Source of the DNA: Antedon mediterranea
Taxonomy: Eukaryota; Animalia; Echinodermata
Length of the DNA stretch: 64,000 nt
Reading direction: 5' to 3'
Assembly (NCBI RefSeq): GCF_964355755.1
Contig: NC_092672.1
Location: 12,462,001 to 12,526,000 of the forward strand
A program made the position numbers and the translations under genes. Within the stretch, counting starts at the first letter, position 1. Every line of letters begins with the position of its first letter. This document shows positions 4,357 to 64,000 of this stretch, one piece after another. The notes under the pieces are model-generated. The model saw nothing but the letters and a program-made list of their open reading frames with translations, had not been told where the DNA came from and did no database searches.

Positions 4357-4470
4357 TTAGGTTATATGCATGATATGCATATAACCTCTTGATTCTGTCA
4401 AAATCTTTATTTATTAGGTTATATGCATTATCATGCATATAACCTCTTGATTCTGTCAAAATCTTTATTT
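4357..4470 (+). mobile_element. Two isolated 5' heads of HINE family D
   Basis: AGGTTATATGCAT..ATGCATATAACCT hairpin + CTTGATTCTGTCAAAATC + (TTTA)n, twice. The left arm is the reverse complement of the family D 3' subterminal ATGCATATAACCT seen at ~15829, 17275, 18693 and 30871. Confidence 0.75.
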
Positions 4471-15873: not shown

Positions 15874-15916
<43 letters not shown>

Positions 15917-29913: not shown

Positions 29914-29916
29914 GTC

Positions 29917-33662: not shown

Positions 33663-34066
33663 GGTCAATCACAACTGACCTCAGAAAAAGATCGGAAAGC
33701 TGTGAGATGTGGTTTCTAAGGAGAATGATGAGAATTCCTTGGACAGATAGAGTTAGTAATGAAGATGTATTGATAAGAGCTGGAGTGTGCAGGAAACTAC
33801 TGAAGGATATTAAGATTAGACAGATGAGATTCATGGGACATGTGTTGAGGAAGGGAGGTCTGGAGAACTTGGCATTAACGGGGAAAATAGAAGGAAGAAG
33901 GAGCAGGGCGAGAAAAAGAGTCACTTGGTTGGCCAGCATAGCTGAGTGGATTCGGAATAGAGGCGAAAATGCCAAAGAAGTGGAGTTGCTGAACATGGCA
34001 ATAGACAGGGAATTGTGGCACAACATGATCGCCAAAGTCTCGTGATATGGCACTTCGAGAGAGAGA
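33663..34066 (+). mobile_element. 5'-truncated RTE-clade LINE (C-terminal end of the ORF) with 11-bp TSD
   Basis: Translation SCEMWFLRRMMRIPWTDRVSNEDVL...RQMRFMGHVLRKGGLENLALTGKIEGRRSRAR is typical of RTE C-termini. There is a (GA)n tail, and the TSD GGGTTTAACAA lies at 33652-33662 and 34067-34077. Confidence 0.9.
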
Positions 34067-34241
34067 GGGTTTAACAAATGACTAAGCTGATATTGTAAAG
34101 ACCAAACATATACAGGAAAAGAAACACAACTGTTTTATAGGTATATTATTAAATAAACACCGTTAAATTAAATGTTTGATACATTTTATAGGACCACATC
34201 TATGCAAAACAAAACTATTACTGTGTGTCGGGCGTTAATGT

Positions 34242-38144: not shown

Positions 38145-38674
38145 CTAAGCATTATATTCTAACTTTTCAGCAGGAACAGTCATGTTATTCTCCTTTAAAA
38201 ATGCAATAAATGATTGCAAGTTATCCTCCCTTAGAATCCCCCTATGTTCAAGATCTAATATCACAGTCCATTGGTTGTTACTTTGTTTTTTTAGAACACT
38301 TTTCAAACGGATGAGATCTCTTGTATTTTCTTTCGAAAGTGCGTCACCAAACTGAATTAGGTGTTGTCGATATGTTGAGAAGGATGTGATACACTGGTTG
38401 GTTTTATCGAATGTCTCCTTTAACAGTTTGTTGACCTCCAAAACACCATTGGTACTAGTGACATTAATTGCGTCAATAAGAACTTTCACGTTGGTAGTGG
38501 TAACATTGCCAGATCGTTTCAATAAGTTGAAGAAATCTATGCAGTCAGCATTCTGTAGATCATTGTAAGGTGTTATCAGATCTTTGCATAACACCTTCAG
38601 TTTATCAAGAGAGCCATGTTCATCATACCAGCTCGATACGTTTACCACGATTTTTTCAAACTCTTCAGATGATT
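38145..38674 (-). CDS. Terminal exon encoding two divergent death-effector (DED)-like domains
   Basis: Two ~80-aa helical units: FEKIVVNVS...LDKLKVLCKD...IDFFNLLKRSGNVTTTNVKVL and FSTYRQHLIQFGDALS...WTVILDLEHRGILREDNLQSF. The second resembles the S.YR.LL..i...L...LE..g.l...NL pattern of caspase-8/cFLIP DED2. Confidence 0.7.
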
Positions 38675-41600: not shown

Positions 41601-44600
41601 GAAAATGGCCTTGTGGCAATACCATTATTACAAATATAAAGCTACCTCTATAGTGCAGTGTTGCTGGCTCTACACAACTTCTTTCTGAAAATGAAAAAGA
41701 TAATTACGATAATGATTGATAGACTGTTTTACTGCTCTTATTTGTTTGGGTTTTCCTACTTCTAACAGTTTCAAAAGTTGTGTTGGCATCACTATTGATA
41801 ATCTAGTTTTTAGTCGCGTGGAAGCGACTCTATAGTTCACTATGTCGGTCGGTCGGTCTGTCTGTCGGTCTGTCTGTCTGTCTGTCGGTTCGGTATCACT
41901 ATGCGTTTTATCGCTTTCTGACCTTATCTTGATATCAGTTTAATCTAGCTAGGTCAATTTTTCACAGTATATTCCTTATGGCCAGGAATCAATGTGGTTA
42001 TGTTTTCACGGTGCGCAATAAAAAATTACGCGGTCTACGCACGATTTAACGAAATCACGTTTGTAATCATATCTTCACAACCATGAATCACAATTAAATA
42101 AAATTTGGTACTCATAAATTTCAGGGCATAAATCATCATATGGCAATACAATTACGTGCGTAGCGCATGTAACGCATGCGTACGCGCGCTTAAAATTTTC
42201 CAAATTTATTTTCGATGAAATAAGAGTACATTTCAGGCAATTTTAAGCGTTTACAAAATTGCCATGAGTGCGATATTTTTGCGCGCGTACTGCGCGTTAA
42301 ATGTTATTGCGCACTCTTTTTGCCCGATTTCTGTTTTCTTGACTTACTTTTTAACTCGAAATTACGTTATGCGAGCACGTCGAAAGTGACAGGCTACGCA
42401 CGTGTAAATTAAAAAAATATAAATGTTTTTAAACATTTCAACATTTTTAAACATGTTCAGTAATTTCGGTCAGTATAGTTCACTATGTCGGTCGGTCTGT
42501 CGGTCTATCGGTCTGTATGTCGGTCCGGTATCACTATGCATTGTAGCACGCGACTTAATGGCTGTTGGCCTTGTTAAATTGTAGGGTACAGTAATGGTAT
42601 TTCTAGGGCTGGTATATGTAATGCATTTTAACAGATGGTTAATTTATCAAGACTTTACTCAAATCTTGGAAGAAAGAAGAAAACATACAATAACATTGTT
42701 CTTCATAACTTTCGAAAACAAGTTATGTTTTAAAAACACTCATTCATTTTTAAAAGACTTATGTATGGTCAGATGATAACGTATAGTTCAATATTTCTAA
42801 TACTTGTATTTAATAATAGTGGTTGGTACAGTATGTCAGATAGTACAATATGTGTATAATAATGATCATAGTAAGTAATTATTAGGTTTCATGAATAGAT
42901 TGCACGTAAAAGTTGAATAATGTTTTCATTATTTATACAGATATCATTCCAATAGTAAAAGTGTGAAACTGTAAAATCAACCTACTTACTTGTTTTTTCT
43001 GATGTTGAAGACATACGTGTTTCAAATGTCTTTTCTCTTTCTCCTTCAGTGGCATTTTGTTCAGCTGTAAAAAACAATTCATTTTGTAAAAAAGCAACAT
43101 AAAAATTGGAAAAGTTATTGTTTTGAATTCCTTTCCAATCGTGTAGAATTCTTATAAATAAATTCAATAAATAAGTGTAAACAATACCATTCAGTTACTT
43201 TAGAGAACATAAAATAAAAGTAAATAAATGTTCAGACAAACGTACCGGGCAAAAACAGACGCTTGATATGAGCAGTATCCATAGCGTCATTCTTTCCACA
43301 TTCAACCGAATTCTCGTTTAAACACCTTTTGAGATTGTGTAAGTGATGTTTATTTGGATCACAAACAGTGCATAATACACGAAGTTTGTAACCGATACCC
43401 TCGTATATAGTACAGACAGTTTGTAGTTGTTTCTTCAAGTAGCTTAGTACCTAAAATGAGACGGACATTTTATCTCAAGATATAATTTATTATTACATGT
43501 CATAGTATGTTAATTTGTTAATTTCGTGTTCATTACCTCCATGCAGACACTTGGTTGTAGTTCTGGTTTAACTTTCAACTCTATGTTAGTGTCATCAATA
43601 GCTGTAGTAGGACTCCAGATTCTTAGGCGATATATTTCAAGCTGTTAAAAAAACGAAGAGAAACATGTATACATGGGACCATTACTAATTTCAGAATCAC
43701 CTTTTGTTAAATTGAATACAAAATACATCATTAAGTTTACAACTTTAAGTAGGGCTAATATAAACGGACATATTCGATGAGGTAGGTGATTATTAAAGTA
43801 ATCCAGATTTTATGATATTTCCTTTTGCATATATCTTAATTGAAAATGTAAATGAAAGTAAAAGAGCATGTCAATAGATATACTGAATGTATATACCTTC
43901 AATGCATATGGCTTTTCTTGTGTATTGTTAATTTTGACGACACCTAGACTGACTCTATGTTCTTTAAAGTTGAAGTCACTACGATTCCGATATACTAGTG
44001 GATCATCACTGTCGGCTTTCGTCGTCAATTCAAGAAATGCAACAACTAAAGTGTGGTACACAGCATCAGGGAGAAAGTCGGTCGGAGTAAGGTAAATTGA
44101 TACCATTTGCACATTATCATCTTTGGTGACTTCCAGACGCTCGTTGTCCACTTTCATCCGACACGGAACCAAGAACACTCGGTTACTATCTTCAACCCCC
44201 TGTTATGAACATAGTTACATAATTTAAAAGACAAACTTATTTTTTTATTATTCTTAAAATATTAAAATAATGTACTAGTTTTACTATCTACAGTTTTTTC
44301 TTCTTACATCACATTTATGTTTATTTTCATACAATAATGATGTTCATAATGATACTATTATTTTTATTCCTAAAAATAGAAAAAAACTAATTTAAACATA
44401 AAATGATATCAGTCTAGTGAACGTAAAATACGGAACAACTTCCTAAAAACATCACAGATTCATCTACAAAAAAACATGCGGTTCTTTCTTAAAAGATTTT
44501 TCATTTAACTCTAAACTGTTATATTAAAAAATGAAAAAACAGTCAGTTAATGTTTAGCTTTGTTTTTTTCTGTCGCTAATTTGTATTTCCATATACAATT

Positions 44601-47600
44601 ATAACTTGGTTTAATTTGTGTTAGAATTAAACTGTTAATTAATAATTGTGAATCAAAAGCCGAATTATAAATTTATCTATACCATTATCACATTTGTTTT
44701 ATTATTAATTTGTTTGATAATCATTATTTTAAACATGTATTGTTAACTTTGTTTAGATTGCATTTATAATTTAGACCATACATGCATACATAATAATTGT
44801 TAATAAACCTTAGTTTAGGAGTGTGTACTTACCGCCATTTCAAAAAGTAACCGAAACTCCTTCATTACTTCTATAAACACTTCAATGTGGCCTTCTTCCT
44901 GTTGCCATAGATAACGTAGTAACTTCTCCTCGAGAATCCCTTTCTCACTTAGCTTATTCCATAACTGCATCAGTTGCTTCTGTGTAAAAATCGTCTTAAC
45001 TGTATCACTAAACACACGGTAATAATTATGTTTGACGAATCAATGAAATTAAGTCAAGAACAACAATGCAATTCCTGCCTACCTTTTTAATAGTCGGTTT
45101 AACTACTGTGATCACCTTTGTCAACATCTGAATCATTATGTGAATATTTGTTATCACTGTGTTTTCTAATTTCTTGTTAGTATTTGAATACATGATTGCT
45201 CCAATGTCATTTAGGTACGTTAATGCATGTAATAGCCCATCTGTTGAAATTCCACATTCAGTGCAAATCACAGAAGCCTAATAACAAATTGAGATTATTT
45301 AAAGAATTTGCGTACACTCTATTAAATCATAGATGATTATTATAGATCTTACTATAGTTTATTATAATATCTCTATGATTGAATGTAGACGATGGTTTTT
45401 AGAAATTAGAATAATATATTGGGTAAACTCTCAAATTGTTGTAAAAAAGAGACGTTTTGACCAAATTAAAAATATTTGAATTGATGTAAAATATATAAAG
45501 AAACCTAAAATTTTATCAGTGTCTTTAAACTTACTCTATTCTGTCTGATGTCAACTTATTTTATTAGCTGCATTATGGGAGTATGTTTGAATAGGTGTAA
45601 AACATGACCGAAGTAATAATATGTACCGCGTTTAGAGCGTTCAAAACAATTGGCTCTTTATAAATCTAGGATCATCATTATCATTTTGGCTCTTTATAAA
45701 TCCAGGATCATCATTATCAGTGTTATTACCGTTGTCGTCGTCGTCATCGTAATTTTTAATAACGTTCTACCATTTTTGCAGAATTATAAAATTCTGCTAA
45801 AATGGGCAAGCCAGAATGATATACATTGTCCCAAGACCTACAGTATATTTTATAACCAACAAAAGTCAATACATGATTATTATCTTTAAAAAATAAAAAA
45901 CATACCTCAATGAAGGTAATGCATAGTCTGGTTTTTCCCATTCCTTGCAACCTTTCTTGCAAATCAAGCCACTTGAATGGAACGGTTCTCACCATGTCCT
46001 TCATGTAACGACCAACGTTTCTTCTTAGTTGTTTAATACCTTCATGCGATTTTACAGTGTTATCTACCATGTACATCTCACGATCTACATGATCGGCATA
46101 TGGCATTCCTTCCATTGTTCTAAACATTAACTGAAACTTATCCTCCACTTCCTTTAATAAAAATATTGTTTTCATTACAAGCGTAAACAAAACAACACAA
46201 ATTTATCTTTTATTACAAAATGTTCATCCACATTCTGATTTGAATACATCTAGACCGTATACTATTAATTACCGATTATTTAATATAAATGCAGAACCAA
46301 TATTACCTCCATCCAAATTTTTGATTTTGACTTTTTCAATTTGTCCATATGTGTAGCAACCAAACAGATAGGAGGTGACTGGATAATCTTGCCAACAACG
46401 TCAATGGGACTTCCTGGACCATGTCGTTTCACAGTATGTTCATAAATGGACCTTATCCAGAACATATTCATTTCCAAATTGGTCATTCCTAGTGTACTCT
46501 AATATCACAAATAAAATGCAATCTTAAGAAGTAAGCTAAAATATTCTCAATAACAAAGATATGCATATTTAATAAGTGTCGAGCGAAATAAGTAGGTAGT
46601 CAACTTACTGTGGTTGAATCTCGCGGATTAGCTGGTTCATCCAAGTTATCACACGCATTAAACGTTACACAGTAGGATACTCTATTTGTGAGGAAAAACT
46701 AAACAAAATACAATTGATAATAATAACTTTTTTTTAATACTCCAACACATTTATTAGGGATGTGTTAATTGATACATGCACTAATACTTTATTGAAAATG
46801 TTATACCACAACACAATGCCGTACTGTCACTATGAGCAAATCTCTTTATTTTTTAATAATCATTTAACATATAAAACAAAAAATATGAACAAAAGAAAAA
46901 ATATGTAAATCAAACAAAATTTAAAATATAATTTAAAGGTCTGTATAATAGAATAGATACGTAAACAAGCAAATCAAGGCCCTTTTTTTAAACATGCGCC
47001 AATAAATTTATTTTTTAATTTTTAAGACATTTTTAAGTAATAGCAAATAACAAAATAGGAACATACCCTATGCGTTATGTAGTAGTCCAGTTGACCTGCG
47101 TAGTCCCATATAGTAGTTACGTCACTTGGAATACTTTCTGAATCATCACTTTTTACAAATTTCCTAATCATTTTCATCGCCCAACTATCTTTCTGTCTTC
47201 GCTTTTTTATTTTAGCAACAACTTTTCTTTGAATTGAGTCGGGAATTGTCAGATTTTCTTTTAGTTGACTCTCTAAATTCAAATAATTACTACAAATCAA
47301 TGGTGTGTGTGTGTAAATTAGATATGGATATGGATAGATGGACTGGTCTGATATGTTGTGAGTAGACATAATGAATGTTAAAATGGATAAAAACTGTATA
47401 CAATAAATAAATACAACAGGATGATTAAAGAATTGAACGAGCAGCGAATATTTTTGATTGCCCAGTTTTAATACCAATGCAATATTTGCATTTTAATACA
47501 TTTATTTGTTTTCAACAAGAAAAGAAACCTCACTCTTCCCTGGTTGGACTAACTTTTTGAGAACAAAATTTTCCAGAATGTTTCATAATAATGGTATAAT

Positions 47601-50600
47601 GCCATACATATTATTTTATCAAATATAAAGAAAACCAAATGATGAGTCTAACCCTTTCTTGCCGATTCCACTGCCAATGACGTGTAATCAGACTCTCTGG
47701 AATCAGATGTAGAAGCCTCGTCTAAAGAAAGTTCGTTGAAAGATGTTCTTTCTTTCATCTTTGATGTAATTTCTTCCACTACAGCCTCTTCAAATATTCT
47801 CTGGGATTGCTTGAATCTGGAGTTTTCTGTCGGCGAAAATGTATAACTAAAAATGATTATTTGTGTCGTGTTGCACTCATAACGAATAAAATGGTTATAT
47901 TATTATATACTAGAGCAGTGAAATATCACTTATATGCCTGTATAAACTCCACAGTTTAACAAGTACTACTTTATATTAATAATAATAAAACAATAATATA
48001 AACAACACTCCTATGAAGTTATAGTGTGATAATTTTGTGTTTCTTTCAGTATCAGCATGTATAATACACTACATTAATTTATTATTTACATTAAGTTGGT
48101 TTATTTACTTTTTTTTAAGAAAAGAAATTACTATTTTAGATCTTGTCATGCAATTAATTTGTTGTTTATTAATTCGTGCGAGGACTTGTTAGGCCTATTA
48201 CTATTAGTAAAGTGATTATATGCGAAACGACCACACTTTACTTATGCAAAATGATCGTCAAAAATATTAAAAAAAATAATCAAACCTTCCACTGAAAACA
48301 CAGAGTCAGAAGATATAGAACATTCGAAATCAGATATTGAAGGTGTTGAAACTGCACCTTGTAAATGGAATTTGGTTTCAGTTGACGTTTGTTTTTCCAT
48401 CTTTGCTGTGATGTGTTCAGGCGTTTTCTGAGATCTTCCTGCAATTCATTATAATATATTTTTTATACAATATATAGAACGTCTAACATTTCACTTTTAT
48501 GTATGTTTCTATACTGTATGAGTGCATCTTAACTTGATTATGATCACCAATACTGTTTGTTTAGAATAATAAAAATACCCTTGTAATAGAAATTATAGTA
48601 GATAATCATCATACCTGTTTTTACTGGATCCAAAGAAGAGATTGCTGATGATTCCAGTTGGGAATCAGATTTAGATGTTGACATATCTGAACTTCCTTCA
48701 CCATCATCCATTTCTTCCTTTATTAACTGTGTTGCAAGTTTTTCTGCAAGTGCATCTTCCCGTATTTCCTTGTTGAGCTCCATAACTGTAAAAAAAAAAA
48801 GCAAGGTTGTACGGTACACATCTTAGAGATAAATTAAAATATGAAAATTAGAGAAATGAGATCTATCAAAAAATCATCATCATCACATGTAAATAAAATA
48901 AATATAGGCCTATGTAAGTCATATAAGTAATTATAGACCAAAATGCATTTAAGTATTTAATTAAAATATTATTTCCAATGTACCTTACCGGTACGTGTTT
49001 ACCTTTATTATGATACTAATTAATCTCTATAAACAAATTGGCCAAAGCACGCAATTATGCGTATGTTGAACGAAGAAGAAAGAGAGAGTTTCTCTCTTTT
49101 GTGGGGACAGCCCACTTTGAACGAACAGTTAATGTGTCATTTGGTATTGTTGACTTCTTCTTTTCAAACTTACCGTCGATATCTTCCTTCTTCCACTTGT
49201 CACAGTCTTTTCCAATTGCTTGAAACAATGTCGTTGTAATAACAATACCATCAGTAGATGGTTCGTTGGATTTAAATCTACAATATATGAATAATGAACT
49301 CCAAAAGGTCGGATTTAAAAAAAGTAGAATGTATCCAATAGTTCATCTTAAAATATTAATATATTTTAAATAAAAACACAAGTAAATAAGCAAATGACAT
49401 ACCTTCAGCAGCAGCATTTGCATAAAAAGCGTCGTCACCATCACTGTCAATATCATTATCATCATCGTCATTATAATCATCATCATCATAATCATTATTA
49501 TCAATCGTTGATACCTGAAGTTTCGTGTTTGAGTAACGGGTTTTCATTCCTTTTCGAATATTTATTATTATTCGAAAAGGAATGAAAACCCGTTACTCAA
49601 ACACGAAACTTCAGGTATCAACTATTTATAATAAGAACCTCACTAATGCCAATTTCTGTATTTTATATATTAATATACTCAGCACCAAACTTACTATAAA
49701 AAGGTAAACCAAACAACTCTTTTAATGTTGTCAATTGCATTAAAGATAAAGTTGTTTATTAAATGGTTCAAATAACAAAAGAGTGATGTATATTTTATTT
49801 TATAAAAAAACTTTGTTCTTTTGTTACCTTTGTCCAAGCATGGCCTTTACACAACTAGTTTTTCCAGCACCTTCTTTCCCGAGAAACATACATCTTGAAT
49901 TTACAACTGCAATATGGCCATTTTCAAGTTCATTTTGAAATGATCTAATTGCGCTCTCACCTCTAGCTAATATTTCAACTGGAACTAAATTGCAATTAAA
50001 ATAAATGCAAAATATACAAAAACAAATACAAATATTTTGAATCAATTCAAAGCCATAGTTTAAAAAATGTCATTATGACAGCTCATCTTTGTCACATTCG
50101 TACAGTTCAAAGGTACAGTACAATGTTCAATGTGTGTCATTAGTAATACACAGTTTAATATTCATGTTGCAAAACTCAATCAAAGTGTATTAATAAAAAC
50201 TTACTGTCAAATAACTCCAATATCTTATTTTTCTTTTCTTTGGAGATATCACTATTATCCTTCAAAGCAGATGCTGGTGTTTGTCCACGCTATACAAAAA
50301 AAATGTATTAAAGTATTATCCACTGTTACTTTACTAATCTATATATACATTTACGTAAGGGAAACAATCAATCACCCCTTACTTCTAGAATTTTTACTCG
50401 ATGGTATATAAAGTTGGTTCGTACTTTCGGTACTGATTTTAACCACCTTATGTAACTCTGTTTACTAATTAAATTGAGTTAGATAATTATTTATTGACGA
50501 TTAAAGCAAATTTACGATTTGCCCCGAATAGAGATGTTTTTCACAAATTGTTTTACATTATATAAACACATACAAATAAACTTTATTACTGACAGTTGCT

Positions 50601-53600
50601 TCTCAACGTTTGTATTACTTAATAATGTAATTACAAAAAAAATATAAACGTCGTAGTGGTGTATCATTACATGTACTGTACTGCACTTTAATCGACTATG
50701 ACGGTGACAGTTTCAACAAAGTATTAAATCGCAATGTTTAAATGTATTTAGTGGTATATTATTTGTAAAACATGAAAACAATTAATATTTCGTTACTAAA
50801 TGGATAAAGAATATATTAACAAATTGTTCCTATTTGCACTCATCCTCTTTTCCATCCCTCAACCCTAATGTTACATACAAAACACAACTTAAGTTTGTTT
50901 AAATTTGACTCAAACAATTGGTCTCATTTTGTGACAAGTTTCTCTTTCGGAAGTAATTCACAGGCTGCTAATTTTAGTTGAGTACATAAATCACCGTTTT
51001 TATTTATTCGTTATTGTAAATGACATTTATTGTCCTGTGGTACGTACATTTGAAATAGCCAGTTTTTTAACGCTGAAATTACTATGTATTCGAGAAGCAT
51101 CTGTGGACGACCTAGATGCGAGCGAAGCGAGTAAACTATAGTAATTTACATATTCCGGATTGTAATAAACACATGCATAAGCTAATAGTGTGCACACGTT
51201 AATATGACACAATCTGAGTACGTTTGCACTAACAAACAACAATACTGCGCTATATCAAGTACCAGTTATTATTTTTAAAAAGGCTATTAAAAAAAATATT
51301 ATAAAAGAATGGTTGATACTGATTAAATGTACATGTTAATTATCGCATCTATGAGAAATTATCACCACTAGCAGTAACCCGTGCTCCGCATGGTCTTTGT
51401 CGGCTTTAATATATGATTATATACTAATTCGCATGGGATGAGTAAGTATCATATAAGCGCACTCTTCCCTCATAAAACGCCATGGATTTTTTATACACCA
51501 AGTATTCCCTCACTTTTAAGTAACTATGAGCTACAAAATGAAAGCAATACTGGATATGGGACTTTCCGGAAATGGAAAAATTGTGCTGTGTGAATAAGAT
51601 GATGCGCGCAATAACATAACGAAAGTATAAAATGGCGAACTATATTATTTTGGGTGTTTTCGGTGGTATTAATTATTATTTTGATACATTGAAATAAAAA
51701 GTGAACAAAAATTGAACGGAATAGAAAGTGCATGAGATTAAAACATTTTAATAAAGTATTGGAATAAATCAACACAAAAAATAGTCGAATTTGGCAATGA
51801 GCTCGGACACAAACTATTACTTTTTGGGTGTATGTTTTTTTTTAGACAAAAAAATTACTGCTATTGTTTGCATTTTTTGTGTTTATCCTTAAAAAAAATC
51901 AGGAAAGTGACATAGCCTATCGTGTGCGGCCCATCAGTAAACATCAGTGTGCCAAATGTAAGTTCAGTGGTTTTGGAAGAGATACATAAAATTTAAAAAA
52001 ATTAGTAGCATTAATATTTAGATGCTAACATAATGTCTTTAAACAATTGCCGCCCTTTCTGATATTGTTTGGCTCCATCAAGATAATGATTACTGTGTAT
52101 TAGTTAACAAAAGATTTGTAATATTTTAAAGTTGATAGATACTCCTAATCAAAATAAGAGTATACCTTGGATATGTAGGCGTAATGGTTTGCTAATAAGC
52201 ACAATTTAAAAATGCAAATGCAATGTTGTTGCATTAATTGATGGTACCTTGTTTGTTGCTTTAAGTGATGCTCCGTACGCTATGAGACTGTTCACTATTT
52301 CTAGATTACCACTCGTGCCAATCCTAACGTGTTCATGTAGCGGTGTGTTTCCCTCCTGGAAAGCAGAAAGTTGTATGTATAATAATATACATTTTACACT
52401 TTAGATACTAGAACTAAGGTTTAAACAAATTTAATATGTATTCGTTCTGCTCCTACAATTATAACAAGCAATTAACTACTACATCTAATTATTGTATATT
52501 TTGCTTCTCGTGGGCTACTCGTCTTTCAGTAGGTAACTTCGATGATCATCCCTGCCAAATCGGAAGGACTTGTCTGGCGGGTGTAGGCGATTATACAAGT
52601 ATAATTATTTAAACTCTGGCGGCAAATGGAAATGCGTCTGGCAGATGGACAGCCGAGAATGAGTCCAACGGATGTGAAGCATATATGTCTATCGATTATA
52701 GAATGAAAGTTAGATGATAAATCTGAATTAGGGTAAAAAATTGACTTCAGTAATGTAAACGGAGTCCCATCGTTTTATGACTTTTTATGAAATCATACAC
52801 ATAAGCGCCATTATTGGTTCGGCATCATAGTCCGCAAGGTCTATGGTCAAGAAATTATTAAGTAAATGGAGTATGTTGTTAATTGTCTACGATACTGTAG
52901 ACCACAGTATGACATTACTGTAAATAATACAACTAGTTGATTTTAATTGGGACGTGGAGAGGTGTTAGCAATGAACATACTTTTGAAAGTATTGGTATTA
53001 CCGTCTTTGATAAATAAATAACTTTTTACACAATGAAAATAAATTAAACAAACACAAGGTTTGTTTATAATAATGGGAGCTCATTCAAAATAATAACATT
53101 AATAATTGTTTAAATCATTTTAAAAGAGTAATTTACATTGTTTGTTGCTGTGATTGATGCTCCGTGAGCTATGAGACTGTTCACTATCTCTACATTACCA
53201 TGGCCATACCTAACGTGTTCATGTAGGAGTGTGCTTCCATCCTGGAAAGAAGAAATTAGATTAAACTTGACGCATTTTTTTTAAGAATACAGGTAGTATT
53301 ATATTACATATTTATCCTTTTCTACATTCATTTTGTAATTATTTAATAGTGACTGTAAATCATAATAAGGTAATAAGAAAATAAGAAGAAAATAATACAA
53401 TTTGCTGAGTTTAATTATTATAATACAGATGGGTTAGCATTGAACACATTTTAAGAAAATAATAATACAACTTGTACCCTGGAAAGAAGAAAGTTAGATT
53501 AAACTTGACGCATTGTTTTTAAAGAATACAGGTAGTATTATAATTATTACATATTTATCCTTTTCTATATCTCATTTTGTAGTTTATTGAGAGTGACTGT

Positions 53601-55893
53601 ATTATAAAGAAGATATGGTTTTAAGAAAATAATACAACTTGCTGATTTTAATTATTATAATACAGAAGGGTTAGCAATGAACACATTTTAAAAGTATTAA
53701 TTTAGGCTCTTGTTCAATCTAAAATGCTACAGCTACACAATTTTAATATATTTTAAATTGTATTTTTGCTTTGATAATAACTATACATTTTTCAAATGAA
53801 AAACACATTAAACGAATCTAGGATTTGCTTATAACGGGGGACAATTTAAATTCAATTGTAATGTTAACTAATACGAATAATTACGTTACGATTTTTAAAT
53901 CATTGTAAAAGAGTAATTTACATTGTTTGTTGCTGTGATTGATGCTCCGTGAGCTACGAGACTGTTCACTATCTCTACATTACCACGGCCATACAAAACG
54001 TGTGTATGTAGCGGTGTGTTTCCATCCTGGAAAGAAGAAAGTTAGATTAAACTTGACGCATTTTTTTAAGAATACAAGTATTATTATATTACATATTTAT
54101 CATTTTCTATATTCATTTTGTAGTTTATTGAGAGTGACTGTAAATTATAAAGAAGACCTGGTTTTAAGAAAATAATACAACTGGCTGATTTTAATTACTA
54201 TAATACAGAAGGGTTAGCAATGAACACATTTTAAAAGTATTGATTTAGCGTCTTGTTCAATCTAAAATGCTACAGCTACACTATTTTTAATATATTTTAA
54301 ATTATATTTTTGGTTTGATAATAACTATACATTTTTTCCAATGAAAAACACATTAAACGAATCTAGTGTTTGTTTATAATGGTAGGTAATTTAGATTAAT
54401 TTATAGTGTTAACTAATGCGAATAATTACGTTAATGATTTTTAAATCATTTTAAAAGAGTAATTTACATTGTTTGTTGCTGTGATTGATGCTCCGTGAGC
54501 TATGAGACTGTTCACTATCTCTACATTACCACAGCCATACCTAACGTGTTCATGTAGCGGTGTGTCTCCATTCTGGAAAGAAGAAAGTTAGTTTAAACTT
54601 GACGCATTTTTTTTAAGAATACAGGTAGTATTATATTACATATTTATCCTTTTCTACATTCATTTTGTAATTATTTAATAGTGACTGTAAATTATAATAA
54701 GGTAATAAGAAAATAAGAAGAAAATAATACAATTTGCTGAGTTTAATTATTATAATACAGGTTAGCATTGAACACATTTTAAGAAAATAATAATACAACT
54801 TGTACCCTGGAAAGAAGAAAGTTAGATTAAACTTGATGCATTTTTTTTTAAGAATACAGGTAGTATTATATTACATATTTATCCTTTTCTATATTTCATT
54901 TTGTAGTTTATTGAGAGTGACTGTAAATTATAAATAAGACATGGTTTTAAGAAAATAATACAACTTGCTGATTTTAATTATTATAATACAGAGGGGTTAG
55001 CAATGAACACATTTTAAAAGTATTGATTTAGCGTCTTTTTCGATCTAAAACGCTACAGCTACACGATTTTCAATATATTTTAAATTGTATTTTTGCTTTG
55101 ATAATAACTATACATTTTTTCTACTAAAGAAAAACACAATAAACGAATCTAGAGTTTGCTTATAACGGGGGACAATTTAAATTCACTTGTAATGTTAACT
55201 AATACGAATAATTACGTTACGATTTTTAAATCATTGTAAAAGAGTAATTTACATTGTTTGTTGCTGTGATTGATGCTCCGTGGGCTATGAGACTGTTCAC
55301 TATCTCTACATTACCACGGCCATACACAACGTGTCTATGTAGCGGTGTGTTTCCATCCTGGAAAGAAGAAAGTTAGATTAAACTTGACGCATTTTTTTAA
55401 GAATACAAGTATTATTATATTACATATTTATCCTTTTCTATATTAATTTTGTAATTCATTAAGAGTGACTGTAAATTATACAGAAAAACCTGGTATTAAG
55501 AAAATAATACAACTTGCTGATTTTAATTATTATAATACAGAGGGGTTAGCACTGAACACATTTTAAAAGTATTAATTTAGCGTCTTGTTCATTCTAAAAT
55601 GCTACAGCTACACGATTTTCAATATAATTGTATTTTTGCTTTGATAACAACTATACATTTTCCAATGAAAAACACATTAAACGAATCTAGGGTTTGCATA
55701 TAACGGGAGATAATGTAAATTCACTTGAGTGTTAACTAATACGAATAATTACGTTAATGATTTTTAAATCATTGTAAGAGCAATTTACATTGTTTGTTGC
55801 TGTGATTGATGCTCCGTGAGCTATGAGACTGTTCACTATCTCTACATTATCAACGCCAAACAAAAAGTATTCATGTAGTGGTGTATTTCCCTC
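38145..55893 (-). CDS. ROCO-family protein: 6 ankyrin repeats - ROC GTPase - COR - tandem death-effector domains (24 exons; 5' start exon not located)
   Basis: Hand-spliced GT-AG exons: 55893-55789, 55357-55253, 54572-54468, 54026-53922, 53241-53137, 52355-52248, 50289-50205, 49984-49828, 49277-49174, 48785-48615, 48438-48286, 47826-47653, 47272-47067, 46698-46609, 46498-46307, 46151-45906, 45277-45083, 44979-44833, 44199-43897, 43641-43537, 43450-43246, 43064-42990, 41684-41646, 38674-38145. Phases are compatible and the total is 3810 nt. Motifs: P-loop GKEGAGKTS, G2 STDGI, G3 WDYAGQ, G4 VATHMD, COR-like ALTYLNDIGAIMY and FLVPC. Confidence 0.88.
39264..41600. mobile_element. Non-autonomous hAT-like TIR element in the last ROCO intron
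   Basis: Perfect 16-bp TIR CAGGGCTGCAAATTAA / TTAATTTGCAGCCCTG with repeated subterminal motifs (GGTAGCAC; GTCGCA/TGCGAC). Only 5 bp (GAAAA) are duplicated at the flanks. Confidence 0.7.
41807..42575 (+). mobile_element. Solo HINE/DINE-1-like element (family E) in a ROCO intron
   Basis: TTTTTAGTCGCGTG-gaa-GCGACT head, (GTCG/GTCT)n microsatellite, 3' CACGCGACT + small hairpin GGCTGTTGGCC + TTGTT. The interior 41925-42410 is homologous to the family D body. Confidence 0.85.
49507..49622. repeat. Perfect 54-bp inverted repeat with 8-nt loop (intronic)
   Basis: GTTGATACCTGAAG...TTCGAATA / TATTCGAA...CTTCAGGTATCAAC. Confidence 0.92.
50338..51141 (+). mobile_element. Shorter copy of the 25900-27356 Helitron, in a ROCO intron
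   Basis: A|TCTATATATACATTTACGTAA start. Colinear with 25900-26110 and 26735-27345. The 3' hairpin is degraded and the element ends ..CTATAG|T. Confidence 0.82.
51368..52022 (-). mobile_element. Non-autonomous Helitron of a different family, minus strand
   Basis: The minus strand reads A|TCTAAATATTAA ... ACCATGC-gga-GCACGGGT-tactg-CTAG|T. Confidence 0.62.
52248..55893 (-). CDS. Six single-ankyrin-repeat phase-0 exons (5 x 105 nt, 1 x 108 nt)
   Basis: Each reads xGxT(P/L)LHxxxxxGxxN(V/L)EIVNSL(I/V)A(H/Y)GAS(I/L)xATN(N/K) and is flanked by TTTCCAG| and |GTA. Confidence 0.92.
52530..52600 (+). pseudogene. Decayed EGF-like exon antisense within an ankyrin intron
   Basis: After TCTTTCAG| it reads GNFDDHPCQIGRTCLAGVGDYTS, compared with the EGF consensus C..xPCQNGGTCxDGVxxYTC. 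A stop follows shortly after. Confidence 0.45.
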
Positions 55894-56015
55894 CTGGAAA
55901 GAAGAAAGTTAGATTAAACTTGACGCATTTTTTTAAAGAATACATGTATTATTATTATATTACATATTTATCCTTTTCTACATTCATTTTGTAATTCATT
56001 AAGAGTGAATGTAAA

Positions 56016-56194
56016 CACCCGATTCTGTAGCTGTGGAAGTGTGGAAGACTGTCGACAGTCTACCAGAGACCTATCTGACTATATTAAGTACCTTTAATAC
56101 ACGATATCGCTGTCATTAATACAGTCAGATAGGTCTCTGGTAGACTGTCGACAGTCTTCCACACTGAGTGTACTAACAGCTACAGAATCGGGTG
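56016..56194. mobile_element. Palindromic MITE with CACCCGATTCTGTA termini, inserted in an ankyrin intron repeat
   Basis: Inverted arms; flanks ATGTAAA / ATATAAA form a 7-bp TSD with one mismatch. The empty site GAGTGACTGTAAATTATA is visible in sister intron units (e.g. ~55464). Confidence 0.85.
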
Positions 56195-58409
56195 ATATAA
56201 ATTATAAAGAAATACCATGGTATTAAGAAAATAATAACTAACTGATATCAATTAAGAAATGCAGAGGATTTTGCAATGAACATCATTTTGAAAGTATTGA
56301 TTTTAGCGTCTTGTTAAATGATGTTTAAAATACTTTTAAATTATAATTTATCTTACTTTGATAACAAAAATATTACTTGTGTTTCACAATGAAAAACAAA
56401 TTATACAAATACAGGGTTGGTTTATACGTGAGCTCATTTATATTAACTATTGAGTGTTAATTAATACGGACAATAACGTTAATAATATTAATTCATTAAT
56501 TTAGTAATTAACATTCATTTTGTAATTCATTAATAGTGACTGTAAACTGTAAAGAAAACACCTGATAGTAAGAAAGTAATACAACTAGCTGATTTTAACT
56601 TAGACGTGCAGATGTGTTACCAATGAACATTTAAAAGCTGATTTTAACTTAGACGTGCAGAAGTGTTTAGCAATGAACATTTAAAAGCAGATTTTAACTT
56701 TGAACATGTACTGTAGATGTGTTAGCAATGAACATACATTTGAAAGTATTGATGTTAGTGTCTTTTTTAATCTAAAATTTGACAGCTGTACATGGTATTT
56801 ATATATCGTAATTTTTATGGTGATAGTTAATAACTATAATTAATTTAATTATTATTATTATTTAATAAAGGACGTTTAATTTATCATTTTATTACAAAAT
56901 GTAATGACAAAAATAGAGATAGCCGACCAATTTGGTGCTTAGTGAACTTAATATTATTATTTTGTATACTTGATCTTGAAAATGGTTCTATGATGCTACC
57001 GGTTTGCTTAAAACGAGAGCTGACTAAAATTAACTTTTTAACTACTACGAATTATAACGTCACTGATTTTTAAGTAATAATAAATCTCTGTCTACGCTAC
57101 CAAACTCTATCAATAAAGCATCACATGAAATGTGACTGAACGATATCATTAGTAGAAAGGACACCAACTTGCGGGAAGCGATCCAGCACATCACCTTTTA
57201 AGCCTGGTTTCCAGTCTGCGTAAGACCTGCTTCTGTTTCCGATTGAGCCATTTTCTTACGATAACGCTTGCCTTCCGATCAGTTGACCAAAAACTAAGGT
57301 GGACAATGATCATGACCGCGTTGGACCGCAAAGATTAAGATCATTACATGTGCTGATTCCTTCCTTGTTGAAGTATGTCCTTCCTGACGTTAGGTCGAGT
57401 TGAAATGTTTTCCTGCTTTTACAATGCATGACACGGTTAACAAGAATTTATTTATGATTGCCTATAAAATTCCGTAGGTAAATGGCATCTTTTGAAATGA
57501 AGTGCCTAACAAAACTGGACCCGCAAGGATGTACAGTACATAATTAAATGGTGATAGTCGCCGACAAAATTTAATCTTGTTGCTGACAATTTGTTTCATG
57601 ATTTTTACCCGGTTTTGAATTCCTCTTTTTCACACGTGGCTAATTGAAATGATACAAACATCAAATGATCCTATACATTTCGTTTAGATTCAAGTAAACT
57701 TTTGTGAATACTGAATTTGTAGATCTGTATGTATTTATCAAACCGCCTTCAAAAAATAATTGCGAATTCCACCAATACACTCTACGGTGAATTCACTAAA
57801 TATTGTTTATTATTAATCTATTATCTATCCCACCTTCATTCTACAATTAAAAAAGAAAATATTACGTATTTCGGGTGAACGGTTTTTAAATATTTGTTGC
57901 TTTTGTATTTTATCCTATGGGTGTCGTACTGTCTGCATTTTACCCATGTTATCATATTTTTACTATATTTATATAATAAAAAGTGACAAGAAAGACAATT
58001 TATTTTACATTTCTCAGAGCTATTTGGTATTTCATCATTATTACATTTTTCACAAATTAAAATATTGTGGTTTAGGGCCTACATAGTTATTGTCAAACAT
58101 TCTCATATACAGTACTTCATTGCCTCTTTGTGCTGTATTTCACCTTTCCAAGCTGTGGATGCTTGCCAACGCCGCATAATTCACCCCCGTCATGTCAGTG
58201 ATCGGCTAGTTTTTACGATCCATTGTTGGGTTTACGCTTCCGAAAAAGCTGACTTCAAGTCATGTGCATCTACAGTTATCAGTTATCACCAATGTCCGCG
58301 TTTCTGTTCTTTCTCTTTATTTTCCAGTTATATGCACTTTATATATTTTATTTGTTGCTTGTATTTTAAAAGATACTAATAGATATAGATGAGAACTGAG
58401 CTAAGATGA

Positions 58410-58550
58410 ACTATTTTAGGTTCTATTTGTTCGATTTATGATCCATTTAGTTTCGCAGCTCCTGTACATTACAGGAAAGTTTTACAGGCTATGTGCAAGC
58501 AGAATTTACACTTAGACGAACCGTTAGCATCTGAATTACGGACCAGTTGG
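58410..58550 (+). mobile_element. BEL/Pao LTR retrotransposon pol remnant, part 1
   Basis: Reads TILGSICSIYDPFSFAAPV..KVLQAMCKQNLHLDEPLASELRTSW, matching the Pao-type SIYDPLG..AP....K..LQ.LC.....WD.PL motif. Confidence 0.8.
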
Positions 58551-58836
58551 TTAATTTCTTTCGTTCCTTTGAATGATCCAAGAAACACTTATTATTATGG
58601 TCTTTGGCCGAAATAATATAGGCCTAGGCCTACATGTGCCGGTGCCAACCCGAGGTATGGTCAATAAAGAAACACACTATATGACATTTCGGAAACTATT
58701 CTTTATTAATGTACTTTCTTACAATCCGGTGAAAACTAGAAAGAAATGCAACACAACAGGATTAAATAAAACCTACAACGTTGCTAGCCCACCGCTACAC
58801 ATTATACGGAGTATATAGGGCCTCACAATTTGGCTA

Positions 58837-59722
58837 GCGTCTAGTTCCGTTTCGCACCTGTTTTTATTTCGACTTCCTTTTGACTCCAAATTGTTAAGCA
58901 ACTTATTGTGAATACCACACCTTAAAATTGGGCCTCATAAGTACTTTTATGAAGAAGAATCACATAAAAAGTAACAAATAAATCCTTAAATTGATGATTT
59001 TACAGACATGTTTCTCGCATACCGTTCGCCGCGAATTTAGCATACTCGAAGTTCAATATTTTCCTTTCTATGGAGCGCCAAAAGAGCAACAACAATAGAT
59101 GGTTAAAACCTCAGTGGAATGCGTCTTCTTTTAATGCATTTATTATTGAAATACACGTTTAATTGTAATATATTTTGTCAATAAAAATGCTGTAACATTT
59201 TACTGCTAATAATTTGCTGTTTTCAAATAGCAACCAACCTAAGAGTAAGACTAAGAGGCATATTATTTAGATTAAGGTATACCCCTACAGTACATGTAAT
59301 ATGATGATGAATTTGTCGATTTTCATTCCTAACTAAAAAAAAGCTCCTGAAAAAACCATGTACAGTATCAACAGTAATATTTTTGTTGCATTGACAAAAT
59401 ATGATAAAATTGAACGTAATTTTCACCAATAAATGCATTAAATATACACAATTTACTGAGTTTTTAGCCCTCAATTATGATTGCTCTTTTAGCGCTCCAT
59501 AGAAACAACAACATTGAACATCGAGTATGCGAAATTCACGAACCGATGTGCGAGAAACACGTCTGTAAATTCATCAATTTAAAGGATTTATATTTTACTT
59601 TTTGTGTGATCTCCTTCGTAAAAGTATTAAAGAGGCTTAATTCTAAGGTGTGGTACTCACGATAAAGTTACTTAACCAATTTTGAGTCGAAATAAACGAC
59701 AGGTGCGAAACGGAACTAGCGC
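58837..59722. mobile_element. Diverged long-TIR/foldback MITE
   Basis: CTAGTTCCGTTTCGCACCTG.. (58841) pairs with ..CAGGTGCGAAACGGAACTAG (59720). Inverted similarity extends more than 250 bp inward. Confidence 0.75.
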
Positions 59723-59962
59723 CGGCCTAGAATAGGTAGGCTAGTAGGCTAGGGCTAAAATAAAATGCTCGTTTAACTATCAAATAACAAATAAACAGTA
59801 ACAAAATCTGTCTCACCACATTTGGCCAGTGTCATTAACAAACTTCTTGGAATAACAATAAATGCGTTAAAATTGAATCAAACAACAATACTAACAATTA
59901 AACTACTAGGCCTAGCTAGGCCTACTAGGCCTAGGGCCTATTTATCAACTGTGAGATTTAAA

Positions 59963-61606
59963 CAGCGTTGCCAGCGATAAAATTTAAATTATGCCGTATC
60001 CTGTCTCAAATAATGCCAGATTGGAAAAAATAATGCCAGATCCCCAAAATTAGGCCCTAAACAGCGCCACCAACGGTTGTATGTCTAATAAACGTTTGTA
60101 AAACCCCAACTGACACAAAATAGGGCCTAAATTGTATCCCTATGTCGTTCAAAAATTGTATTTTTAGTTTTGTGAGTAATAACTAATAATTCTAAAAATA
60201 TGGGGTGCGAAAATGGTAATTGCAAATGAAACAAACACCAACCCACGAACCCTTCTCCCCCCCCACCCCCCAAAAAAAACCTGTTACAGCCATGGAAATT
60301 TAGAATTTTTGAGCTGAAATATGAGAGCTGCTCGATCTTTGCACTTAATTTCAAATATGAAAGGATCTTAGCCCACCATAATTAGAAAATGGCAATTATA
60401 ATTTAAAATAGGAAATAAAAATATATATTAAGTGTCTCCAGGACCTCAGCCCCACCATGGTTGATAAGAAAATTTTGAAAAATGCTGATTTAAATGCCAC
60501 TTAATTTAAAATATGAAATAAAAATATATTTATTAGTGTCTCCGGGATCTTAGCCCACCATAGTTCGAAAATGGCAATTATAATTGAAAATACAGTAGGA
60601 AATCAAAATATATATTAAGTGTCTCCAGGACTCAGCCCCACCATGGTTGGGACTGGAGGTACAAACATTTGGAAAAATAGAGCTGCTCAATGGCCGGAAA
60701 TGGCACTTAATTTCAGATATGAAATAAAAATATATTTATTAGTACCTCCAGGATCTTAGCCCACCATAGTTCGAAAATGGCAATTATAATTTAAAATAGG
60801 AAATAAAAATATATATTAAGTGTCTCCAGGACCTCAGCTCCACCATGGCTGGTGCTGAGGTAAGAAAATTTGGAAAAATAGAGCTGCTCAATGGGCGGAA
60901 ATGGCACTTAATTTGAAATAAAAATCTCGCCCACTACTGGGGCTGAGAGGTGAAGAACATTTGGAAAAATAGGGTTGCTACGACGATTCAAATGGAACAT
61001 AATTTGAAATATGGAAAACAAATTCTCTAGAAGAAATTCTTTTTAAAATTAGAGCTTCTAAGTTACCAGAAATTGACATTTTAAGGGTTGGGGTAGGGGT
61101 GCGGCCGCTTTATAATTATGAACTGAAAAAACAAAACCCCTTTCATAATGTTTTCGTTCAATTGTCTCTATATCTGGGGATCCAATAACCTGCATGAACT
61201 CTGAAATAGAGCAACATAATTGGCCAATAGCTAGCCTCTTCGGATTTGTTGTACTGCCTATAATATCGCACACACGGTAGTTTTCGAGCAGCCTTCCTAT
61301 CCGAAGAGTCGATTAAGTCCGAAACGAAAGGATGGAAGAACTACTGTATTGTACGGAAAACCCGAACAGATCTGTTTTGTACGATATGATATTGTATAAG
61401 GTGATAATATGTATTAAATTGCAAGATTTATAAACAAAATATTTTAATTTTGTTCTGTGAAATATTATTTTTTTGGTTGTTCAAAAAACACAAAATTATG
61501 CCAGATTATGCTAAAAACGGCTAAATAATGCCGCGGCATTATGCCAGATGCCGTGGGCCTCCAAATAATGCCAAAAAGCATAATAATGCCAGAAATGGCA
61601 ACTATG
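59963..61606. mobile_element. Non-autonomous hAT element with 8-bp TSD GATTTAAA and internal ~180-205-bp tandem repeats
   Basis: Termini CAGCGTTGCCA / TGGCAACTATG with subterminal TAATGCC/TTATGCC motifs. TSD at 59955-59962 and 61607-61614. Internal repeats start at ~60363, 60546 and 60751. Confidence 0.85.
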
Positions 61607-62412
61607 GATTTAAATGCGCTGCATGCTTGCCGTTAAATAATTATAGAGGGGGTAGTTTCAATAAACTTTGGCGCAGACGGCTACAATGTATATAGAGTGC
61701 GTTTAACAATATTTTCTGAGCTTAAATGAGATCAGTATTTGTAGTAGACATAAGGACAATATATTTTAATTTAGATGGATTATTTGTGTAAGAGGAAAAC
61801 ATACTTAGTTCTACTATCTGAATAAACTAAAGGGAATTTATCTTCAATTGATTGTAGAGAGCATAATTTTCATAGTTTATCATTAGGCTACTATTAGGCC
61901 TAATACGATTCCATCTTCCTTTTTCTAGTTATAATATTCCTAGTCTTTGTTTAGTCACAATGTGTCTATGTTTGTAATTTTAATTAAGTATTCTTCCGTT
62001 CCAACATAATTTATATTGATTGCGTGTGAAATATTGGAGCTATAGAGAGTGTAACCTATTATCTCATAGAATTGTGTCGTTCAATAAGCCTCGCCTTTGT
62101 AAATTTTGAAATAAAAAATATTGTTGACCTGTTGAGCATGCCATGTTGCCAAATCCATTTATAGGCCTACATAATAAGTTTTACATCATTCACCCAAATC
62201 GCTCATTTTGTTGCACTTTTCTATGTTGAAAATCATAACATTGTTTAATGATTTGTTCATAATCTATTTGGCTTACTCTCAGCCACTAACGAATTCAATT
62301 AATGATACTTTGAGTTTGGATAGGGAATTCTCGATATTCTCCACTCACTGCATCACTTGGTGCAAAACTTTCTATTCCTAAAAGATATTTTTATTCTAAA
62401 ATCAAAATATAA

Positions 62413-62780
62413 TCCAAGTGGTATGAAGACATTGTTCATCTGCTGGAAAACTACAAGTCAGTCGATGCTACAAACCACAAGGAAATTCATTATATCTCAG
62501 ATGGTAGTGAAGTAGTATGTGGTCAATGCACGTATTTAAGATTGATGACTCATGATAATATTCCTTCTATTTCTCTACTATTAGCTAACGCCAAAGTTAC
62601 CCCAGCTAAAAAAAACAAGGTATCAAGTGTATGTAGCTAACCGGGTACAACAAATCAACGATGCAACTTCCATAGAAAACATCTTCTAATCCGAGTGATA
62701 TAGTCAGTAGAGCCGTGCGTGCTGACAGTAAGCAATCACATACCGGATGGGTGAGTAGTTCAACACTTCTTCACCAGGTA
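62413..62780 (+). mobile_element. BEL/Pao pol remnant, part 2 (RNase H region, frameshifted)
   Basis: Reads SKWYEDIVHL / LQVSRCYKPQ / EIHYISDGSEVVCGQCTYLRL...SLLLANAKVTPAK / YVANRVQQINDAT / NPSDIVSR. Confidence 0.82.
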
Positions 62781-64000
62781 CAAAACAAAGGCGGTTGGCC
62801 GAAATCGATGACGAATTGCGTATAAGGTAGTTGCTTCAGAACTAAAATATATTCGCTCATTCCACACTAATGTTGACAAAGTTGCTTCAGAATGGGTTTA
62901 TAACAGACAGATAAAATGAACTATAAATCACATTAAATGTATTGAATGTTCATTCCCCTTAAAGGAACCAACACGTAGTAAGGCATATTTTTCACGCTGC
63001 TGCTCTAGCCCGCTACTACGTCACACGAGATGACTCATTAATTAGATGAAATCAAGCAGCAGTTATAGTACTACACTTTGACATTTTTGTTAAAATGGAA
63101 ACTCCACTATAATTTATAGGTAGCAGCTGCATTTCTGGTATTTATGAGTCCCATGACAATACTGTATTTCACTGTCAGATCATTGAATTATTATCAAAAC
63201 AGTCCATGAAAGTTTTTGTTTGTAATATGATACTTCACACTTGAAGTATCTAAGGCCTGATGAAGTGACCCCCAGACTTGACCTTAGCAATAAAATAAAC
63301 TAAATTGAGTCTGTTTCATATCAAAGTTATTCACTTCTGTAACAAAATTCACATTATAGAAAGAGAAAAGAAACGTTTAATTATAACTAAAAAACCACAT
63401 TGTCTGACACTGACAGACAATTGAAGTATTTGGTAATTACATTTTTTCAGGTAAAATAACTATTATGTGACAATAAAATGACACATTCAAAAACAAATTT
63501 GAAATAAAAAAATATTTTTCAGAGGGACAATATATCTTTAAAACTGTTACTCAATAAGCGAGGAGCGTTTTTTGTAAGAAATATTTCTTGTTTAGATATG
63601 CCTATCAATGGTAAACTTAAAGGGGGGTTCCGGGTTTAAAATGAATAGTAAAAAATGTAAAATATATTTGTTTGTCTCTTGAACGGTAAAAGTTTCAATT
63701 TATATAAGCGCCCAGTGAAGCAGAACGAAGGCTGTGAAATGAGGCCAGATTACAAGTGCAGCTACGGCAAAATCACACTGTGGTTACAGAATAGGAAATT
63801 CGTGAAATGGTCAATCTTCCGACGACTCGTTATCATTAACCATATCAATTACTTGTAAAATTATACTTATCTGATGTAATTTTAGTCGGTCTTCCCATTT
63901 ATAAAGTCAATTTTCTATGAAAATCCATCAAAACAGTGAAAAATTAGATAAGTTTGCACTTTACGTTTGCCGATTTTCGCACTGACTTAGGGAAAGCCTT

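Follow-up and report, generated by a model that had tools for sequence, protein, structure and literature searches.

The window analyzed in this work, a 64,000-nucleotide (nt) stretch of the genome of the feather star Antedon mediterranea (contig NC_092672.1, positions 12,462,001 to 12,526,000), contains an array of six ankyrin exons. These exons probably encode the variable N-terminal sensor of a predicted cytoplasmic protein in which the ankyrin repeats (ANK) precede a ROC GTPase domain, a COR domain and a predicted tandem death effector domain (DED), whose predicted ligand face shows positive selection and which would act in immune or cell-death signalling. An earlier note, made from the DNA letters alone, had interpreted the array as a variable ankyrin receptor, and this interpretation was supported in part, namely for selection on the repeat surface, the origin from an animal genome, and the gain and loss of exons. 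The note had missed that ROC, COR and DED-like exons continue the reading frame of the array as far as position 38145. All coordinates are positions in the window, and both the array and the gene lie on the minus strand.

Variation and selection in the ankyrin exons

Exons 1 to 5 are 105 nt long and are located at 55893-55789, 55357-55253, 54572-54468, 54026-53922 and 53241-53137, followed by exon 6 (108 nt) at 52355-52248. As proposed in the earlier note, these are phase-0 exons encoding one ankyrin repeat each: all six lie between AG acceptor and GT donor sites and are in phase 0-0, their translation reproduced the peptides given previously, and all six matched the Pfam family Ank (PF00023) above the curated cut-off. 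Exon 1 is the most divergent unit. Exon 4 is the duplicate partner of exon 2, with 4 nt differences, and exon 5 is that of exon 3, with differences at 7 of 105 exon columns and at 1 of 119 upstream-flank columns. Exon 6, the last repeat, has flanks of its own and is the sole ankyrin exon in the RefSeq model of the gene (XP_071944625.1, here P0020). Ordinary ankyrin genes can also have one exon per ankyrin repeat. Phase 0-0 was found in 13 of the 24 exons of the gene and is weak evidence by itself because 7 of the 18 non-ankyrin exons share it.

Exon 6, which has an extra codon and unrelated flanks, was excluded from every codon test. The mean pair identity of exons 1 to 5 was 0.84 over 31 anchored positions, within the range of 80-100% that characterises repeat sensors of high internal conservation. 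Variation was found at 19 of their 105 columns, 17 of which are in codons 1-15 and only two in codons 16-35, which agrees with the previous statement that the last 20 codons of these exons are nearly identical. Changes in codons 1, 3 and 8-15 had been reported to be mostly amino-acid altering; this was confirmed by an average of 7.3 changing and 0.4 silent differences per pair, whereas the list of variable codons has to be corrected, since codon 13 does not vary, exon 1 alone differs at codons 9, 10, 12 and 15, and codon 5 varies too. The proportion of nonsynonymous differences (pN) was 0.32 in codons 8-15, for which that of synonymous differences (pS) was 0, and 0.009 in codons 16-35. The densest 24-nt stretch carried 10 of the 19 variable sites (permutation p 0.037). 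In the alignment of the duplicated blocks, differences were seen at 12 of 72 columns in codons 8-15, 10 of 63 in codons 1-7, 66 of 1268 in the introns and 2 of 180 in codons 16-35. Compared to the introns, codons 8-15 diverged about threefold faster (p 6e-4) and codons 16-35 more slowly (p 0.013).

A custom codon site model, in which M1a was compared to M2a, gave likelihood ratios (LR) that spanned 12.5-16.5 across runs. Exons 1-4, analyzed with 311 flank columns as neutral reference, resulted in an LR of 12.5 and an omega of about 8, and codons 8, 11 and 14 had posteriors of at least 0.98. Exons 1-5 alone gave an LR of 15.3, which was reached in none of 46 neutral simulations and in none of 58 that included 10% doublet mutations (0 of 104). 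These sequence-based tests provide support for positive selection on codons 8, 11 and 14, and with it for the earlier proposal of diversifying selection on predicted binding-surface codons. The rejection of neutrality by the site models, the divergence of codons 8-15 at three times the intron level, which relaxed sites should not reach, and the position of all ten variable columns of these codons at first or second codon positions (p 0.004; the region was picked after looking) make it very improbable that an ordinary ankyrin scaffold in a region rich in repeats was expanded in tandem without selection, with surface codons that vary for lack of constraint, even if the window is full of noncoding tandem arrays with units of 1.4-1.6 kb and the full-length values for exons 1-5 (pN 0.102 versus pS 0.058) depend on very few silent changes.

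The variable codons were placed on the ankyrin fold by means of a paralog, P0001 (XP_071944626.1), in which an N-cap, six repeats of the window framework with other residues, a cap and a P-loop are present in one annotated protein that is 91% identical to the window product outside the repeats. Of the five positions with at least three residues in the window, four also have at least three in P0001 (p 0.006). Thirteen repeats, from the window gene, P0001 and P0287, were then compared, with the first repeats of P0003 and P0287 dropped because of their unsure 5' models. The residue counts at codons 1-13 were 6, 1, 3, 1, 2, 1, 1, 7, 2, 2, 6, 5 and 2, so that among these only codons 1, 3, 8, 11 and 12 have at least three. 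The AlphaFold model of P0001 matched ankyrin structures and designed ankyrin repeat proteins (DARPins) in a structure search; its repeats mostly have predicted local distance difference test (pLDDT) values of 85-98, and helix 1 comprises codons 5-12 with high confidence. Since this model fixes the register of helix 1, codons 1, 3, 8, 11 and 12 correspond to ankyrin positions 3, 5, 10, 13 and 14, a placement made by register and not by computed surface exposure. Positions 2, 3, 5, 10, 13 and 14 were randomised as one exposed face in an ankyrin library (PMC3308923); the variable positions of the window family are thus five of these six, which has a chance of 1 in 1287 if random, and DARPin chains were also found to vary at matching places. 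The location of the variable codons on a DARPin-type ligand face, as put forward in the earlier note, is therefore in agreement with the predicted structure, by register, at five positions.

A ROCO gene with a DED-like end and its paralogs

When joined, 24 exons form a single open frame of 3810 nt that encodes 1269 amino acids (aa), and all 23 introns are of the GT-AG type. The six ankyrin exons are followed on the same strand by 18 others, the first two of which encode the cap and the P-loop, and the product has the architecture of six ankyrin repeats, cap, ROC, COR and predicted tandem DED. All 1094 residues encoded from exon 6 onwards are identical to P0020 of A. mediterranea, which confirms the animal genome suspected before. 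The results for Roc, COR, DED, kinase and NACHT/NB-ARC domains were read on P0020 (1123 aa). Matches to Roc (PF08477, 39.7 bits, cut-off 27) and COR-A (PF16095, 57.2 bits, cut-off 35.3) identify the gene, as judged from its sequence, as a member of the ROCO family, in which ROC is followed by COR. The G1-G3 motifs, named according to excerpts of PMC6337361, are intact in P0020, with the P-loop at residue 129, the switch I Thr near 154 and DxxG at 403. No kinase was matched in P0020 or in 10 relatives scanned, and no NACHT or NB-ARC domain in P0020, the NTPase of which is Roc. The predicted product has no strong hydrophobic segment, its maximum 19-residue hydropathy being 1.62.

The assignment of the last exon as a tandem DED is based on its structure model. 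The best 11 of 48,161 chains in a structure search were all DED proteins (Z 6.8-9.6), tandem DED structures could be aligned with the model over 127-148 residues at a root mean square deviation of 4-7 A, and the tandem DEDs of FLIP and caspase-8 had the top Foldseek ranks, with weak E-values. In the proposed mechanism, the ankyrin stack would bind a variable ligand in the cytoplasm that may be pathogen-derived or altered-self. Judged from domain homology, ligand binding would switch the nucleotide or dimer state of the ROC-COR GTPase, and the tandem DEDs would then cluster and cause a caspase-8/FADD-type assembly, resulting in cell-death or immune signalling. Alternatively, the last step would correspond to a cFLIP-like brake that restrains DED assembly.

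The C-terminal cap exon of the ankyrin stack is at 50205..50289 (phase 0 to 1), in line with two helices that follow the last repeat in the P0001 structure model. The ROC exons comprise those with the G1 P-loop (49984-49828) and G2 (49277-49174), three with an acidic Ser-rich insert of about 200 aa (48785-48615, 48438-48286 and 47826-47653), one with G3 (47272-47067), one at 46698-46609 and a G4-like one (46498-46307). The insert, located between G2 and G3 within four exons (47067-48785), is much shorter in P0006 and P0014. The end of ROC and COR are encoded at 46151-45906, 45277-45083, 44979-44833, 44199-43897, 43641-43537 and 43450-43246, which are followed by linker exons at 43064-42990 and 41684-41646 and by the last exon at 38674-38145, which encodes the 175 aa of the predicted tandem DED and closes with a stop. 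The C-terminal 614 residues of the gene product (38145-46151) recur unchanged as a separate RefSeq protein, P0019 (XP_071944617.1), which represents either an isoform or a locus that was duplicated very recently.

The gene belongs to an expanded family. A search with a COR exon identified 17 proteins among 103 candidates, all from A. mediterranea and on four large contigs, and further searching raised this spread to at least five. A profile-free search with P0020 resulted in 104 representatives at E 1e-30 or better; the species was looked up for 15 newly found relatives, of which eight are from A. mediterranea and seven from Anneissia japonica. In the family tree the window gene groups with P0002 and P0003. 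Annotation counts show one to eight ankyrin motifs before the P-loop in 12 of 13 chosen Antedon proteins, and the relatives with an N-cap have the ankyrin stack right at their start. A motif scan of 141 new proteins flagged 17 with one to four matches apiece and none with a long array of near-identical repeats, so that such arrays were observed in Antedon records alone. A search with the P0001 ankyrin region gave 2965 matches, mostly generic ankyrins, with one Antedon protein among the 120 listed. Look-alike ANK/Roc clusters also occur in molluscs, sponges, arthropods and oomycetes, and the ANK-ROC combination is common in invertebrates.

Within the family, the repeats of P0006 are most variable at codons 11-12. 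Outside the repeats, neighbour proteins are mosaic, because the identity of P0143 and P0287 to P0020 drops from 91-98% over residues 201-400 to 52-68% over residues 601-900; P0003 is 91-100% identical throughout these residues. In one paralog, the annotated isoforms X1 and X2 (P0286, P0188) are distinguished by precisely one 36-aa repeat, which has the same exon register as in the window gene. It is conceivable, if rather doubtful, that the one-repeat exons of dozens of ANK-ROC-COR-DED loci are joined in different combinations through regulated alternative splicing and also exchanged among paralogs, giving rise to Dscam-like surfaces per individual or cell; if true, feather stars would have a DARPin-like receptor repertoire, coupled to a DED death switch in a cytoplasmic sensor of a deuterostome. 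Different C-terminal parts were observed among the relatives, namely, a second ROC-COR and a hydrophobic tail in P0004, ZU5 in P0009, and another helical domain in P0287, and P0079 has 13 related repeats on a different C-terminal part, without ROC.

Origin, 5' end and surroundings of the array

The segments 53089-54691 and 54421-56015 align at an offset of 1332 with 92.5% identity, which reveals a tandem duplication of two exons. Among the four units, 9 of 11 informative sites group units 1 and 3 versus units 2 and 4, and the other two are unclustered (runs test p 0.49); this pattern fits one tandem duplication, and no shuffling between units was detected in it. The homology of the introns, claimed in the earlier note, was found for introns 1-4 (92.5% over 1615 columns) and for the 5' part of intron 5, but not for intron 6. 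In intron 2, an exon-less half-intron after a duplicated acceptor (54573..54806), of which the read-through has stops, appears to be the relic of a deleted unit, and its second copy in intron 4 (53242..53478) was copied along with the two-exon unit. In another relic of an intron unit, upstream of exon 1 (55894..56640), the acceptor side joins the donor side near 56512 with no exon in between, which suggests an exon deletion. Taken together, the exon-less acceptors are likely relics of two deletion events, one of which was later copied. Coding micro-exons at the cryptic acceptors of introns 2 and 4 were ruled out by stops in the ankyrin frame, and no additional exon copy on either strand and no inverted intronic exons were found. 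The intron unit upstream of exon 1 carries at 56016-56194 a palindromic insertion of about 180 nt with terminal inverted repeats that resembles a miniature inverted-repeat transposable element.

Of the exon duplication and swapping proposed previously, gain and loss are thus seen as a tandem duplication and putative deletion relics, whereas a swap between units left no mosaic signal. Diversity would most likely be generated in the germ line by unequal crossing-over and selection, possibly with some exon skipping; nothing in the analysis points to somatic rearrangement. An assembly artefact, to which tandem repeats are generally prone, is hardly credible for units with their own indels and 3-15% divergence per 110 columns, and a like array with other residues is present in P0001.

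At the RNA level, a 905-nt contig (run X9) was found to match the predicted ROC exons in three pieces, with record positions 716/717 adjoining across an intron; spliced RNA of the window gene or a close relative exists. The splicing of exons 1-5 into the message is predicted from sequence. A joint in run X1 that skips 55013-55496 was rejected as an exon skip, since it has 28 letters on one side and is out of the repeat-unit register. No Rfam match was obtained anywhere in the window.

A number of observations weigh against a positively selected sensor with a DED-type effector. The selection tests are based on 4-5 short sequences and one tree, the highest LR among the plain null simulations (14.2; 10.6 with 10% doublets) is close to the observed 15.3, one 24-column intron window differs at 7 of 24 columns as well, and short tracts imported from paralogs could mimic the signal. 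Library position 2, equivalent to codon 35, does not vary among the ten repeats of 35 aa, the highly variable codon 14 is part of a two-residue inter-helix insert that DARPins lack, P0285 is little variable, with at most three residues per position in seven repeats, and no exchange between units was detected at the 11 informative sites of the four units. As for the last exon, its Pfam DED match (27 bits) is below the cut-off of 35.9, Foldseek E-values are above 0.2, with none at 0.001 or better, and the structure model is middling (pLDDT 69). The spliced contig of run X9 supports the ROC exons and not the ankyrin exons, P0020 omits exons 1-5, and searches of 55894-64000, the 8.1 kb upstream, by tblastn with one and with four N-caps and by an ATG-to-donor scan revealed no convincing start or N-cap exon.

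The last two points would also be expected if exons 1-5 were a detached or silent 5' remnant that has lost its first exon and in which the variable codons reflect past selection or conversion tracts from paralogs. Such a scenario, which would also fit the decay seen in several exon-less relics and the annotated neighbour genes that are often truncated or split, is unlikely: all six exons are free of stops, frameshifts and broken splice sites, and the framework codons are better conserved than the introns. Furthermore, the first intron may simply reach beyond the window, and the omission of exons 1-5 is likely an annotation modelling fault, because the start of P0003 likewise misreads an ankyrin exon. 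The first 29 residues of P0020 are drawn from intron 5 (52615-52811), and P0003 starts with an ankyrin exon read out of frame. The ankyrin exons of the cluster, which comprises RefSeq XP_071944617-27 and relatives, are undercounted by the annotation.

Other features of the window include noncoding tandem arrays at 1-6096, 7655-12355 and 12836-20019, with units of about 1.4-1.64 kb and 93-99% identity, to which pieces near 29900-30300 and 41840-42210 are related. Short open frames are present on both strands at 33547-34134, of which the plus-strand frame 33596-34045 presumably resembles the C-terminal end of the reverse transcriptase protein of a long interspersed nuclear element. Nested inverted-repeat elements at 58903-59665 (about 760 nt) and 22832-24589 (about 1.75 kb) are likely nonautonomous DNA transposons, and minisatellites were noted at 29149-29694 (period 165) and 60492-60920 (period 201).

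Comparison with known systems and significance

The comparisons with algal, fungal and animal proteins draw on excerpts of the papers cited. The analogy to the leucine-rich repeat (LRR) ROCO genes of the brown alga Ectocarpus is closer than the earlier note had it, as the window gene is itself a ROCO. In brown algal ROCO genes, one exon per LRR, selection, recombination and alternative splicing have been described (PMC3341825, PMC11378527). Shared features are a repeat sensor N-terminal to ROC-COR, symmetrical exons that each encode one repeat, an expanded family, diversifying selection on repeat surface codons, noncoding repeat relics in introns, and isoforms that differ by repeats, here for the annotated pair of a paralog only. 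In contrast to the algal genes, the window gene is an animal gene with ankyrin repeats and a C-terminal tandem DED-like module, the intron phase is 0 instead of 2, and the array has neither inverted intronic exons nor detected exchange between units. ANK-ROCO proteins of oomycetes and Gonium are also reported, as are at least 17 ROCOs of Trichoplax with LRR, TPR, CARD and death domains (PMC11378527).

Near-identical hypervariable repeats are known from fungal NOD-like receptors (NLRs) and have been reported in animal NLRs too (PMC13449251). The fungal WD40, ANK and TPR NLRs of high internal conservation (HNWD, het genes) are similar to the window gene in their near-identical repeats with few hypervariable positions, in repeat gain and loss, and in the coupling of an NTPase to a cell-death effector, which is a predicted one here. 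However, the window gene has a ROC-COR GTPase and no NACHT/NB-ARC, its sensor is N-terminal and its effector C-terminal, and homologous introns separate the repeats. Fungal repeats of like pattern control allorecognition (PMC13449251), and a tandem DED is compatible with any regulated cell death. The array might accordingly serve as a diversifying intracellular sensor for a polymorphic self ligand, with a role in allorecognition, gamete or tissue compatibility, or cell death during autotomy and regeneration, and not for pathogens; this is considered quite unlikely, given that a co-varying partner gene was not observed in the window and that an expansion over at least five large contigs would rather resemble invader-driven expansions.

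Like the window gene, DAPK1, invertebrate DAPK-like ANK-ROC-COR proteins and LRRK1/2 have ankyrin repeats beside ROC-COR, and DAPK1 has a death-fold C-terminus (PMC6337361). The gene differs from the DAPK family in the absence of a kinase match in the 1123-aa P0020, in a tandem DED-like module in place of a death domain, and in its near-identical, hypervariable repeats. DARPins and ankyrin libraries share with it a constant framework and variation at positions 3, 5, 10, 13 and 14 (PMC3308923), whereas the window repeats are natural, 35-36 aa long, carry a variable inter-helix insert and have a fixed position 2. The tandem DEDs of caspase-8, cFLIP and viral FLIP are alike in predicted fold to the last exon, at 13-21% identity, but in the window gene the module is C-terminal on a GTPase. 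Fusions of ROC-COR to TIR and death domains have been described in a mollusc and in sea anemones (PMC9334734, PMC5094078); further literature is cited without detail (PMC8195603, PMC8229355, PMC8683736, PMC4132713). A literature search of main texts, with few subscription journals among them, revealed among the matches listed neither a report of ANK-ROCO families in crinoids or other echinoderms nor one of animal ROCO genes with hypervariable ankyrin exons of one repeat each. By analogy, the gene resembles the algal LRR-ROCO and the fungal high-conservation repeat sensors in design and belongs to neither.

The design of exon-per-repeat ROCO genes in algae and of hypervariable repeats in fungi would thus occur in an animal, built of ankyrin repeats and with a predicted DED-like effector. 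Natural selection would act on nearly the same ankyrin positions that engineers randomise. Since five of the six exons are missing from the public annotation, such arrays are probably undercounted. Echinoderm immunology gains a candidate family of intracellular receptors, and the locus allows a test of whether the ROCO expansions of invertebrates are sensors of invaders.

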